A model generated the notes under the pieces. The model searched no databases. It was not told the DNA's origin and worked only from the letters and a program-made list of their open reading frames with translations. A stretch of 64,000 nucleotides of DNA from contig CAXHJY010001387.1 in assembly GCA_964016885.1 (NCBI GenBank), forward strand, positions 90,469 through 154,468, read 5' to 3'. Shown piece after piece: positions 25,250-54,830 of this stretch (position 1 is the stretch's first letter; each line of letters starts with the position of its first letter). Origin of the DNA: Eledone cirrhosa (taxonomy: Eukaryota). The translations under genes were made by a program, and so were the position numbers.

Positions 25250-25562
25250 ATAAAAGGACGATTTGTTATGTCTTCATTACGTTTATTGACTGGTGACGCG
25301 CGTTTCGCTATTGATCAACTGTGGTAATGACACAGCAGAGGTCCGACGAGCTTTTGATTCCAGAGTCGGGCCAGATCGAACCTTGAGCTGATCAATAGGG
25401 AAACGCGCGTCACCAACCAATAAACGTAATGAAGACATAACAAATCGTCCTTATATTATTATATTTATACTCTGTCTAGCCCTACACCTCGTTACAGACG
25501 TGAATCTAAACATCGGGTGCTCACCTGGGTGAACATACGGTAACTTCACGTTACACTCTTTG
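25250..25562 (+). mobile_element. Palindromic mini-PLE with hammerhead (25339-25413) and tail
   Basis: ~70-bp inverted arms. ggt-CCGACGA-stem II-GAAAC-GCGC-GTC^-acc, AATAAA, then TATACTC hairpin tail. Confidence 0.75.
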
Positions 25563-25674
25563 ATATATATATTTACACACACATATATAAAGGTATATTA
25601 TACATACACGCGTGTGAGTGTGTGTGAGTTTTGTAGGTGGTGGGTGTATGTAGATAAGTAAGATGTTACACGCG

Positions 25675-25895
25675 GTTTGTGGTCGAACCTGTGGCAGTGA
25701 GTGGAGACTTCCAGTATTCTTGCATTCTTGCCCACCCTCTCCGATCATATGGTTACCCCAAATTGCGAGCCTCGTGAGGTGGAGTGGCTGTTCCAGAGCG
25801 TCTTCCTCGCTATCTGCAATGTCTGCTCTATCGTCTTCTCTATCCTGTCCGCCGGGACCACGAGGCGGACTAACCCTTAAACAAGGAGATCCTCT
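25675..25895 (+). mobile_element. Degenerate CRE-like non-LTR 3' fragment
   Basis: PREVEWLFQSVFLAI resembles PRELEWLFQRVSLAV at ~57175. Confidence 0.6.
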
Positions 25896-25969
25896 TCTAA
25901 TCACATTTTTTATTGCATATTATGACTATTAATACCATTAATTTTCCATTTCCCATGGAAACGGTTTAA

Positions 25970-26191
25970 CCCTTTAGCATTTAAACTGGCCATATCCGGC
26001 CAGAACTCTCTCACTTCTTTCTGCTCAAACTGGCTATAACCGGCTGCTTATACTTATGTTAAGGTATTATTCTCAAAATAAATAATATCAAAATCTCATA
26101 GATTCGATATTGTGTGGGGTAATTTTGTGAGATAAAGTGTTTACTATGAAAATACTATGTAAATATATAGAGTAATGTAAATACTAGAGGT
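25970..26191. mobile_element. piggyBac-like MITE
   Basis: TTAA|CCCTTTAGCATTT ... AAATACTAGAGGT|TTAA. Confidence 0.6.
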
Positions 26192-26739
26192 TTAAGCTTT
26201 ACCATAGATCATTGCGTTATTTACTGTAGAATACCCACTGAAGATCCTATGCCGATTCCCGGTTGATGATGCAACTGTCTGCTGGGATATACACTTATTT
26301 ACGTAACTGTTACTAGCAGTTTGGCTTTTAATGAAACTAGCGCTGTTTGGGGTTTATATTAATATTTTTATATTGTTAATGGCTGATTCGATTATCGATT
26401 GTTTGATACTAGTTGTATTAATTTCATTGACGACCATATTTAATTTATGGGATATATCAATAGTTTTGATATTTTTATTAGATGATTTGATGGTCGCTAA
26501 GTTGTTATTCATATTAATTTTTGTTGATAACTCTAATTAACTTGTTCAATATTGCCACTACACTTCTGATTCTGTTGTGAAGTAGTTTGTTACTGGATTC
26601 ATTTCAGTTAGCTTTGAGTAAAATGGTGTGAGGTATGGTGTTGAAGTACTGTGGCAATATGATTTTGTGAATTTATATATATATATATATATATATATAT
26701 ATATATATATATATATATATATATATATATATATATATA

Positions 26740-26935
26740 CGTTATTCCGGGTTGAATCGGAGGTAACCACAGTAAGTAAGGTACTCGATACATTGCAGAG
26801 TATAAAAGTTTTAATATAGATGAGATTCTACAGGACTAGAACTGTTTCATTCTTTAGAAATCATCAGGAATCTCCTGATGATTTCTAAAGAATGAAACAG
26901 TTCTAGTCCTGTAGAATCTCATCTATATTAAAACT
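26740..26935 (-). mobile_element. Palindromic mini-PLE with back-to-back hammerhead cores
   Basis: Perfect ~60-bp arms 26808-26935. Minus strand gagattc-CTGATGA-tttctaaagaat-GAAACAG..CTGTA^-gaatctc. Tail 26740-26807; (TA)n flanks. Confidence 0.85.
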
Positions 26936-52302: not shown

Positions 52303-54042
52303 TATATTTAGTTTGATTTATATTTATATGAGAACTAGCCGATAAATCTTTTGATTCCTAAATCTTTGATTCCCTCTTTTTACTCTTTCTATTGTTTTTT
52401 TTATTTTATTTATTTTTATTTTTTATTATTTTTTATTATTTTTTATCTAAACATTCCTCATGAAAAATTAAGCTACCCTAAAAGCCGATGCTCCAAATTT
52501 TTTTGAATTAACCTTACACTAGATAAACTTCTATATTAAATATAGGAACTTATGTAGACATTATTGGACATCATAATCTTTTTTTGCGATATTCTTTGCT
52601 AGATGTGATTTGATAGATAATTTTTGGCTTTGTCTTGTAATGAACTTGGCAATATATTGTCAATTAACTTTGAAGGGTTGTTCTTTGTGGTTTATTTTTA
52701 TTTTATTTTTATTTTATTTTTATTTTTATTTTTATTTTTATTTTTATTTTTATTTTTATTTTTATTTTTATTTTTATTTTTATTTTTATTTTTATTTTTA
52801 TTTTTATTTTTATTTTTATTTTTATTTTTATTTTTATTTTTATTTTTATTTTTATTTTTATTCTTTTAGTATTGTAGTATTCTATAATATTTTTATTTTT
52901 TATTTTATTTTTTTATTTTATTTTTAATATTTTTATATGTAAATTTTTTATATGTAAATTTTTAATACGTAATATTTTTTAATACGTAGTATTTTAATAT
53001 GCAATATTTTTATTATGTAATATTCTTTCGTAATATATTTTTTTTTAGTTTTCTATTCTATATTTTTATATATTTTTACTTATTATTATTATTATTGTTA
53101 TCTTTGTTTATAATATAATATATATTTTCGATTAGTATATTGAAATCTGCTCTCTATTTCTGCTTGATAGATAATCTTGTAGAGTAATCGCAAGAATAAT
53201 AATACGCTCAAATGTTTATACCACATTGAGAATGTTTTCCAGTAACTTAGAATTTGCGGAGTGAATCAGTTGGATTCACATTGATGTTTGTAGCTGTCAC
53301 ATAAACATATGAATTTTTTAAAACTAAACATAAGATAATGAATTTTCACACATTGTGAATACTTGTTTCATTCAGGAATACTAATATTTACAATATAGTG
53401 TAAGTTTTATAAATACTAATACATTAAAACATAGGGTTTTCTATGCCTCGAATATGTCTGGCTATTTTTAAATTTTTTTCTCTCTATATATCTCTCTATA
53501 TCTCTCTATATATCTCCCTTACATTAATACTTGAGCTAAATAAATAAATAAATAAATAAATAAATAAATAAATGTATCATTGATACACTTACTCAAAATG
53601 ACCTCCCACTACCTAATTTTCTATATATATATATATGTATCTATCTCTATTTCCTCTCTCTATATATATATATATCTCTTTCTGTCTCTTTACATGAAGC
53701 TCTTCGCTTTATCTATTTTTCCATCTCTCTATTTTGTCCCATGCATTTCTTCTTTTTCTTTTTCTTCTTTTTCTTCCTCTTCTTCGTTTTGTCTTTCTTT
53801 CTTTCTTTTTTCCCTCTTTTCTTTCTCTCTTTCTTTCTCTCTGTATTTTCACTGCTAGAGTAAACCTCTTCAAATGAAGTTGATGTTTATTACGGTATGT
53901 CGAATATATTTATCTATAAAACTGTTTATATTGTATTTTGTCTGATGAAGGCATAACATATTGTTAATATGATATCCCCGAAATATATATAATGAAATAA
54001 ATATGGTTTTATAAATATAGTTTTCCATTTATTTAATATTGT
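50681..54042 (+). mobile_element. Hydra-like PLE, 5'-truncated, with long 3'UTR and hammerhead (53935-53998)
   Basis: (TA)n flanks; attttgt-CTGATGA..GAAAT-ATAT-ATA^-atgaaat, then AATAAA. Confidence 0.85.
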
Positions 54043-54061
54043 ATATATATATATATATATA

Positions 54062-54345
54062 CAGGGTACCTCCGGTATTCGCGGTTCCGGTTATTCATGA
54101 GATTTTCATTAGAAATTAACTAATAATAGTTCGTGGAAACCACCGCATATTCGCGGTATCGTAAATATCTTCCACGATTTTTTAAATGGCTTTTTTCGTG
54201 GTAGTATATATATATTTTTAATGCTAAATTATTGATAACAATATACTGCATTTGCCAGCCTATTGGGCGCCCCTTTGTATAAGACGTTCCCTCTTTTTAA
54301 AATTATATTTTATATTTTGGCGTTTATAGGCATTTTTATGGTTTT
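54062..54345. mobile_element. pogo/Tigger-like MITE fragment; fuller copy at 59365-59679
   Basis: TA|CAGGGTACCTCCGGTATTCGCG start; second copy ends CGCGAATACCGGGGGACAGCTG|TA. Confidence 0.65.
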
Positions 54346-54640
54346 TCACTGTGCATTACTGGTACTTTATTTTATCGATCTCGTAAGGATGAAAGACAAA
54401 GCTAACCTCGGCGGGATTTAAACTCAGAATGTAAAGGACCGTAACTTTATGCCGCAAAGCATGTTGTCCGACGCTCTACTGATACTGCTAATCCACCACA
54501 AGTCATTTTTCATAATAATAACAATAATTGTTTCTACTTTAGGCACAAGACCAGCAATTACCCAGTGCATTACTGGTACTTTATTTTATCGACCCCGTAA
54601 GGATGAAAGGCAAAGTTAACCTCGGCGGGATTTGAGGTTT
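54345..54640 (-). mobile_element. Two adjacent tRNA-derived SINE copies
   Basis: Family match. Confidence 0.8.
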
Positions 54641-54659
54641 AATAACATATATATATAAT

Positions 54660-54830
54660 TAAGAATGGGTAAAGCCTATATTACACAAGGTACTCAATAC
54701 ATTACTAAAGAGTATACAAATGCATTTTATACAGAAATGACTTCTTTGTTTGAAATCATCAGGAAATGATGATTTCACAGGAATGAAACATTTGTAGTCC
54801 CGTAGAAGTAATTCCTAAATTCTTATTTAA
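54660..54830 (-). mobile_element. Degenerate palindromic mini-PLE (26740-like)
   Basis: gaaatcatcagg-aa-atgatgatttc centre; aaggtactcaatac..gagtata tail. Confidence 0.65.

Follow-up and report, generated by a model that had tools for sequence, protein, structure and literature searches.

The 64,000-nt stretch of Eledone cirrhosa DNA analysed here (contig CAXHJY010001387.1, positions 90,469 to 154,468; hereafter the window) contains eight short palindromes built from the ends of Penelope-like elements (PLEs), which we compared with copies drawn from the host assembly (3.0 Gb in 1,796 contigs, with abundant TA microsatellites). The original prediction described eight mini-palindromes from about five families, each turning at a hammerhead ribozyme, and attributed the turn to stalling or folding back of the reverse transcriptase (RT) at that ribozyme. 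The palindromes, their families and their PLE origin largely stood, and the proposed role of the ribozyme was not supported. From their sequence, these structures would probably have formed from two cDNAs that began at the two known PLE start sites, ran off the end of a capped sense RNA and were then joined.

In element orientation, every arm corresponds to the 3' end of a pseudo-long terminal repeat (pLTR), in which the hammerhead is followed by a spacer of 15-55 nt and a TA junction, and one arm adds a tail of 53-100 nt; the pairs are short head-to-head arms set in a TA microsatellite. Self-BLAST with low-complexity filtering recovered six of the eight palindromes with the boundaries given in Table 1 (families E, C and B, and the family A copies at 26807 and 37193), and the family D palindrome was recovered at 75% identity over 134 nt. 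Five of the six sequences tested by folding gave z = -12 to -24, with 0/200 shuffles equally stable; the sixth, 54700-54830, gave z = -2.8 with 4/200 shuffles as stable. This copy, 75% identical to family A at 26846-26984, is a decayed relative of family A, leaving seven clear palindromes. Five families account for all eight, as expected: A (26807, 37193, 54730), B (44191, 50423), C (29014), D (33444) and E (25244). A one-sided tail of about 53-100 nt was likewise found next to one arm in seven of the eight, being displaced by about 260 nt at 37193. The claim that AATAAA occurs on both strands held for three palindromes (C, D, E); two have ATTAAA on both strands and three have neither. The centres fall at the hammerhead in family A (first bases of stem I), D (core start and GAAA), C (stem II and loop II) and B (loop II beside stem II), but in E the actual turn lies near 25331, just upstream of the ribozyme. 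This agreement is partly built in, because most of the initial 60-150 nt of an arm belong to the ribozyme.

Table 1. PLE-derived features in the window; arm ends are counted from +1, the predicted transcription start of each family
Feature	Positions	Strand	Remarks
Family E palindrome	25244-25462		sense arm from ~25332; antisense arm to ~+5, with internal deletion; turn ~25331
Family E tail, right arm	25463-25563	+	
Family A tail	26740-26806	-	
Family A palindrome	26807-26935		tail arm ends +1 (stem I first base), G before; other arm from ~+5
Family C tail	28942-29013	-	
Family C palindrome	29014-29240		arm ends +87 and ~+41, within ribozyme, off predicted start
Long head-to-head family B insertion	30219-32506		tail arm ~900 nt; tail-less arm ~1,390 nt
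GIY-YIG C-terminal remnant	31117-31275		in tail-less arm of 30219-32506
Family D tail	33391-33443	-	
Family D palindrome	33444-33573		tail arm ends +10 (core start); other arm +35 (GAAA)
Family A tail of 37193 copy	36885-36935	-	~260 nt of other DNA between tail and arm
Older family A palindrome	37193-37325		turn at stem I 5' strand, ~+1, by eye
Family B tail	44114-44190	-	source of 29-mer probe
Family B perfect palindrome	44191-44306		both arms end +2; 4-nt GTAC overlap in loop II
Family B (subfamily B4) palindrome	50423-50547		arms end ~+2, 1 nt between; by analogy with 13 B4 arm contexts
B4 tail	50548-50623	+	
Decayed family A-like copy	54667-54830		tail, internally deleted arm, turn ~54765

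The predicted PLE origin is supported by families B and F. Long arms of family B extend about 1.3-1.5 kb into GIY-YIG-like sequence (genomic loci L034, L038 and L059, and the window remnant in Table 1) and then into RT sequence, found further upstream in L294 and L295. Family F is a young PLE family represented in the window by a 5'-truncated copy with one frameshift (50684-54045) and in the genome by 125 scored matches at 97-100% protein identity, including many at 97-99% with open frames of up to 738-745 aa and several head-to-head pairs. Its order of pLTR, hammerhead, junction, tail and then a 738-745 aa open reading frame (ORF) is that of a partial-tandem PLE and places the tail between junction and ORF, so that the tail belongs to the leader just downstream of the pLTR; this full-length layout comes from family F alone, not from copies of A-E. 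In family C, RT and GIY-YIG matches occur at a distance of about 1.8 kb and in the same orientation (L298, L300), a positional association only. The query proteins were window fragments whose domain matches were weak, one of three with a Pfam GIY-YIG match (E = 0.012, below the cut-off), and GIY-YIG occurs in 23% of the members of their Atlas clusters at 0.96. No RT or GIY-YIG match was found in the one family A and two family D extensions fetched; A, D and E are tentatively assigned to PLEs by shared anatomy, to which A and D add a tail motif in common with B. This 11-nt motif (in the tails at 26740-26806, 33391-33443 and 44114-44190) reads Ile-Glu-Tyr in the sole open frame of A and B, and could represent the N-terminus of an ORF or an element recognised by the RT. 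The window also contains fragments of RT and GIY-YIG frames.

The predicted hammerheads are of type I, judged by their core, GAAA, NUH triplet and three stems. Family A has a predicted type I hammerhead with core CUGAUGA and family B one with a U3-A8 core, and in both the minimum-energy fold gives three stems; those of C, D and E were assigned by core motif and by eye, the minimum-energy folds of D and E not being hammerheads. An Rfam scan gave no hammerhead among the matches listed (150 of 255), which were mostly microsatellite-driven miRNA-precursor hits, all under gathering scores. More hammerhead-like cores, in other repeat families, occur at window positions 3246, 5108, 5344, 32936, 35347, 43513 and 53942.

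Genomic copies were drawn through their tail sequence, leaving the turn points unselected: a tail 29-mer for family B (28,415 exact genome matches), a tail 24-mer for family A (14,004 exact matches), and tail-only DNA searches for C, D and E (30 loci each). Loci selected by arm sequence (L001-030 and L221-292) were left out of the end-rate counts of their own family and used for junction anatomy only. The upstream extension of each arm was determined by comparison with natural long copies, and very short arms are missing from the counts because arms without an anchor or with a sub-threshold score were uncounted.

Mapped onto the pLTR families, the breakpoints are strongly non-uniform, in agreement with the original prediction: 193 of 347 arms end within one 14-nt interval, from -5 to +9. 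Per nucleotide at risk, 193 ends fell in 1,858 nt of this interval, 113 in 15,287 nt downstream and 8 in 1,087 nt upstream, a difference of about 14-fold each way, and a set restricted to long arms and to ends abutting the mate or a microsatellite gave 158/1,560, 79/12,000 and 6/1,065, respectively. Among the arms reaching +9, the proportion stopping in the interval was 37/52 in A, 112/126 in B, 17/20 in C, 10/10 in D and 17/20 in E; a hand tally for family C showed that about 60 of 100 copies holding +5 to +28, among the matches listed, stop there going upstream. Six of the eight window palindromes have an arm in the interval, the placement being by eye or by analogy in four. The distance from pile-up to TA junction varies between families (B 59, A 66, D 80, E 150 and C 170 nt). 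Two further apparent clusters were rejected: one in family B at -4/-7 arose mostly from misalignment at the GTAC junction and diminished once ends were trimmed, and one at -77 reflected reference divergence.

The pile-up lies at initiator-like (Inr-like) words combined, in most families, with a TATA-like box near -30 or a downstream promoter element (DPE) near +28, by comparison with general promoter consensuses. In family A, a TATAAATA-like box stands at -29/-30 before CC^AG in three of four references, spanning two subfamilies with different spacers, and at -37 in the fourth. Family B has TATTTA at -29 before TC^AGT or TT^AGT, family D has TTTATA at -28 before TT^AGTT in one of two references, and family C combines AC^ATTT with AGACA at +28 to +32. 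Arms of family F end at a conserved (C/T)C^ACT located 78-91 nt upstream of the hammerhead core, with five well-aligned stubs ending between -2 and +3 and a DPE-like pentamer at +27 to +29 in seven of nine references; most other F-like arms could not be placed because of divergence. Taken together, these motifs make it likely that the pile-up marks a transcription start, as predicted from sequence. In family B (L059, L049, L034) the TATA-like box overlaps the 5' strand of stem II and the predicted start falls in loop II, and the DPE of family C is located on the 5' strand of stem I.

In family B, many ends at this position carry a guanine that is absent from the reference. Among the B junctions found genome-wide with both arms at +1 and 3-8 added bases, 302 read C...G, 58 were mixed and 6 read T...A. 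This corresponds to 90% G per arm, and the mixed junctions are close to the 63 expected if the arms were independent (departure from independence, p = 0.11). At individual loci, once bases that the other arm could have templated were removed, G was present at 12/22 ends at +1 and at 28/121 elsewhere (p = 0.004), and in family B alone at 9/15 and 3/40; this stricter test supersedes the initial one (23/36 versus 36/161). A first tally for family B, among the matches listed, gave 35 G to 5 A of 100 against 8:8 at a control position, and 23:5 against 8:8 (p = 0.04) after subtracting the 12 of 35 readable from the other arm. The corresponding family D tally (34 G, 25 A, 25 C and 16 T of 100, among the matches listed) was not used, as every one of these bases could have come from the other arm. 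An untemplated 5' G before L1 insertions has been read as evidence of a capped template (PMC6425141), and the non-reference G of family B is likely a signature of cap copying.

The hallmark of endonuclease-containing (EN+) PLEs, an inverted 5'-truncated copy with a tail at one end only, was found in 158 of 165 pairs sampled genome-wide, with two tails in 3 and none in 4; in the arm-selected subset, 22 of 24 pairs had one tail and 2 had none. An independent 50:50 choice of start sites predicts two tails in a third of the tail-bearing pairs, as against the 3/161 seen. This regularity could also be obtained from a single cDNA that runs off the RNA 5' end, folds back and is copied until the target is reached at the TA junction, with later central deletions making the arms unequal. 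Such self-priming has already been proposed (PMC3846280), and would account for the one-tail rule and for symmetric junctions such as C-A-G between arms. Arms within a pair are also more alike than arms of different pairs (median 1.5 versus 5 differences per 40 nt, 52 B pairs), as they would equally be if both copied one shared RNA. However, of 158 pairs, 40 had a tail-less arm reaching more than 3 nt further upstream and 57 a tail arm doing so, the remaining 61 differing by no more than 3 nt; at 30219-32506 the tail-less arm is longer by about 500 nt. A fold-back copy can neither outrun its template nor create a tail, so at least 40 pairs need two RNA-templated cDNAs, barring later deletions. 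Arm ends within pairs were uncorrelated (Spearman 0.16-0.33, none significant), the near-independence of the 58 mixed junctions stands against fold-back copying, and so do the 53 tail-less arms, unpaired under the pairing rule used, that also end between -5 and +9. The proximal start is moreover a true RT start in vitro (PMC11167929). Fold-back of a single cDNA is consequently an unlikely origin for these structures. The joins comprised 60 overlaps, 19 blunt joins and 86 with inserted bases.

The preferred reading, two cDNAs run off the capped sense RNA, fits the in vitro behaviour of Poseidon_Ac (PAc), in which two internal RT starts bound the tail, both target strands are cut and extended, and hammerhead cleavage is unnecessary (PMC11167929). 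Each palindrome would be a dead-end PLE insertion of two head-to-head arms. Transcription would begin within the upstream pLTR in a partial tandem, at a point 60-170 nt ahead of the proximal RT start (the TA junction); the distal RT start (the tail end) would lie a further 50-100 nt downstream. The ribonucleoprotein (RNP) would engage start sites near the RNA 5' end. The nicked strands of the TA microsatellite would each prime at one site, and with one strand priming per site both cDNAs would be short, like the retroviral strong-stop product. Both would run to the cap, which the RT would copy as an extra C; after trimming, the ends would be joined through microhomology, as blunt ends or with the addition of a few bases, leaving a head-to-head stub in the TA repeat. 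For arms extending beyond +1, the template would be the 3' pLTR copy or read-through RNA. The ribozyme would lie at the turn because it adjoins the promoter, and it was likely uncleaved in these templates; in family B, where the predicted start is inside loop II, the RNA end would carry half a hammerhead.

Several observations weigh against this reading. The model does not account for a factor enforcing one start per strand, and in vitro the start site showed no difference between the two target strands, an observation that alone would not lead one to expect the one-tail rule (PMC11167929); tail-less pairs are also under-sampled, because most loci were drawn by tail. The +1 positions were picked after the ends had been seen, and Inr-like words are common in AT-rich DNA. 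Family E, with TC^ATTC at its pile-up, lacks both a TATA at -30 and a DPE at +28. For family F, an advance prediction from TATA-like words placed the start beside the ribozyme, where no cluster was found, and the start 80-90 nt upstream was adopted only after that failure. The extra G was present at only 2/12 filtered +1 ends of the arm-selected B loci L233-262 (11/27 versus 3/40, p = 0.002, when pooled with the other B loci); family C shows no evident G excess at its ends, and in family A fold-back on the stem I complement could supply the base. Both arms of 29014 are among the 113 ends that lie downstream of the pile-up. Finally, among 20 long-ORF copies of family F judged by eye, 1 starts near the predicted start, 8 start in the leader and 2 inside the hammerhead core, and the remaining 9 have a longer stretch of element sequence upstream. 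The 8 leader-starting copies (L305, L308, L312, L314, L316, L317, L319, L320) begin in the tail or leader of about 130 nt before the ORF, possibly a second stopping zone where the RNP binds.

The ends might alternatively reflect another fixed boundary of the RNA or RNP, such as an uncapped processed 5' end, a splice junction or a protein footprint, the extra C being added by RT terminal transferase. Many RTs do add C at run-off ends, B and F have pyrimidine-rich stretches ending in AG before or across the site, and the lack of clean promoter motifs in family E would fit. A boundary of this kind nevertheless leaves unexplained that diverged subfamilies retain a TATA at -30 or a DPE at +28, that other B ends show no G enrichment (3/40) and that arms stop without continuing into an upstream exon, and we regard it as quite improbable.

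Stalling or fold-back at the folded hammerhead, with the ribozyme setting the inversion point, is a very doubtful explanation, and is largely refuted for families B, C and F. It is favoured by the family A pile-up, which is at the first base of stem I (+1), by that of D, 4 nt before stem I (+5), by the position of all eight window centres in or beside the hammerhead, and by a few copies whose turn falls in the palindromic loop III or at the cleavage site. Relative to the pile-up, however, stem I begins at about +23 in E, at +28 in C and at -48 in B; the pile-up thus ranges from 48 nt inside the ribozyme (B), through about 22-27 nt upstream of it (E, C), to 78-91 nt upstream of the core in F (about 85 nt), following the predicted promoter geometry and no fixed hammerhead element. 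The cleavage site has no significant excess of ends in C, D or E (10/837 nt versus 67/8,546 nt, p = 0.23; A and B were excluded because the anchor overlaps the site), and stalling predicts neither a G at one position nor promoter spacing. That the palindromes are independent miniature inverted-repeat transposable elements (MITEs), or were amplified whole, is barely credible: copy number is in the tens of thousands and the same GTAC junction recurs in 6 of 30 young B copies (a set biased to reach that point), but GTAC is a self-complementary overlap at +2, centres, arm lengths and junctions differ from copy to copy with no fixed unit amplified whole, the tail is asymmetric, and B arms continue uninterrupted into GIY-YIG and RT sequence. 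The TA-repeat flanks would mask any target-site duplication.

Two-cDNA run-off has partial parallels elsewhere. In L1 twin-priming, priming on the second strand gives an inversion, and retroviral minus-strand strong-stop DNA is a short run-off cDNA from an internal start. The palindromes described here differ in that one RNA segment would serve as template for both arms, each from one of two fixed starts, with the product integrating as it is. The likeness to L1 extends to the cap-copied extra G (PMC6425141).

Much of the anatomy is already known from PLEs, namely inverted truncated pLTRs, one-sided tails, junction palindromes and opposite-strand hammerhead pairs (PMC3846280, PMC8557442, PMC4209133). 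EN+ PLEs have an inverted 5'-truncated pLTR with an optional tail of 30-40 bp (PMC3846280, PMC8557442) and resemble the present copies in their head-to-head arms, one-arm tail, microsatellite or AT-rich targets, palindromic junctions and pLTR hammerhead, whereas the present insertions consist of two stubs of 50-170 nt, have tails of 53-100 nt and exist in tens of thousands of copies. The earlier proposal left open whether the template is sense or antisense RNA and described self-priming on an antisense template (PMC3846280), whereas the ends reported here coincide with a predicted start on the sense strand and carry an extra G. Poseidon_Ac shares two internal RT starts bounding the tail, extension of both strands, AT-rich targets and dispensable cleavage, but the available text of that account contains neither run-off at a capped start nor joining of two cDNAs nor a one-tail rule (PMC11167929).

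Promoter and ribozyme also have precedents. Penelope of Drosophila virilis has its promoter and start within the pLTR, with an Inr and the DPE RGACGTGY (PMC2377424); family C is similar in having AGAC(A/G) at +28, whereas A, B and D carry TATA-like boxes and the start of B falls inside the hammerhead. PLE hammerheads are of type I, located in pLTRs, with a U3-A8 variant and opposite-strand pairs 100-700 bp apart (PMC4209133); the palindromic loop III of C and E and the U3-A8 core of B match this description, which in its available text neither maps nor explains the junctions. Non-LTR retrozymes are likewise short hammerhead-bearing derivatives of pLTRs, but they form head-to-tail tandem units with their own transposition (10.64898/2026.07.22.740005), whereas the present copies are head-to-head, variable-ended, dead-end products. 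A literature search, covering titles, the openings of abstracts and selected passages of mostly non-subscription papers, found no account of PLE cDNA run-off at a transcription start, and the formation of inverted pLTRs and one-sided tails has been described as undefined (PMC8557442, PMC11167929).

Other features of the window include a tail-less solo arm of family D flanked by TA runs (55795-55865), and a perfect 74-nt palindrome (44338-44411) with a central TA run and 20-nt unique arms outside it, a geometry opposite to that of the PLE stubs. A SINE-like repeat (short interspersed element) is abundant (25130-25245, 46749-47233 and others), forms 123-nt tandem units at 46749-47233 and often sits inside family D and E arms at other loci. 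Long open frames at 10870-13653 (+; 927 aa) and 19400-22858 (-; 1,152 aa), the latter with an upstream frame at 22854-24236 (-; 460 aa), are presumably of long interspersed element (LINE) type. At L009 and L044, tens of nucleotides of unique flank occur on both insertion sides, which suggests long target duplications including expanded TA runs.

An inverted mate was present for 58 of 76 family B tail arms and 19 of 34 family A tail arms (long pairs included), and by extrapolation from tail matches and mate fractions the genome would hold on the order of 20,000 inverted pairs of B and 8,000 of A. Inverted pairs lying inside transcripts would be expected to form perfect hairpins, which may, as the original prediction proposed, be a source of dsRNA or siRNA. 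If the two-cDNA reading holds, the junctions would favour a capped sense template with two independent cDNAs, giving explicit predictions for the in vitro system, and the hammerhead would move from cause to bystander for these structures. It is an evenly balanced question whether PLEs routinely integrate by reverse-transcribing a capped sense RNA twice, once per target strand and from two fixed starts, with the mini-palindromes as the integrated double strong-stop product. If so, the inverted pLTR and the one-sided tail would be explained and the question of a sense or antisense template settled, and the tens of thousands of stubs would provide a built-in map of PLE transcription starts.

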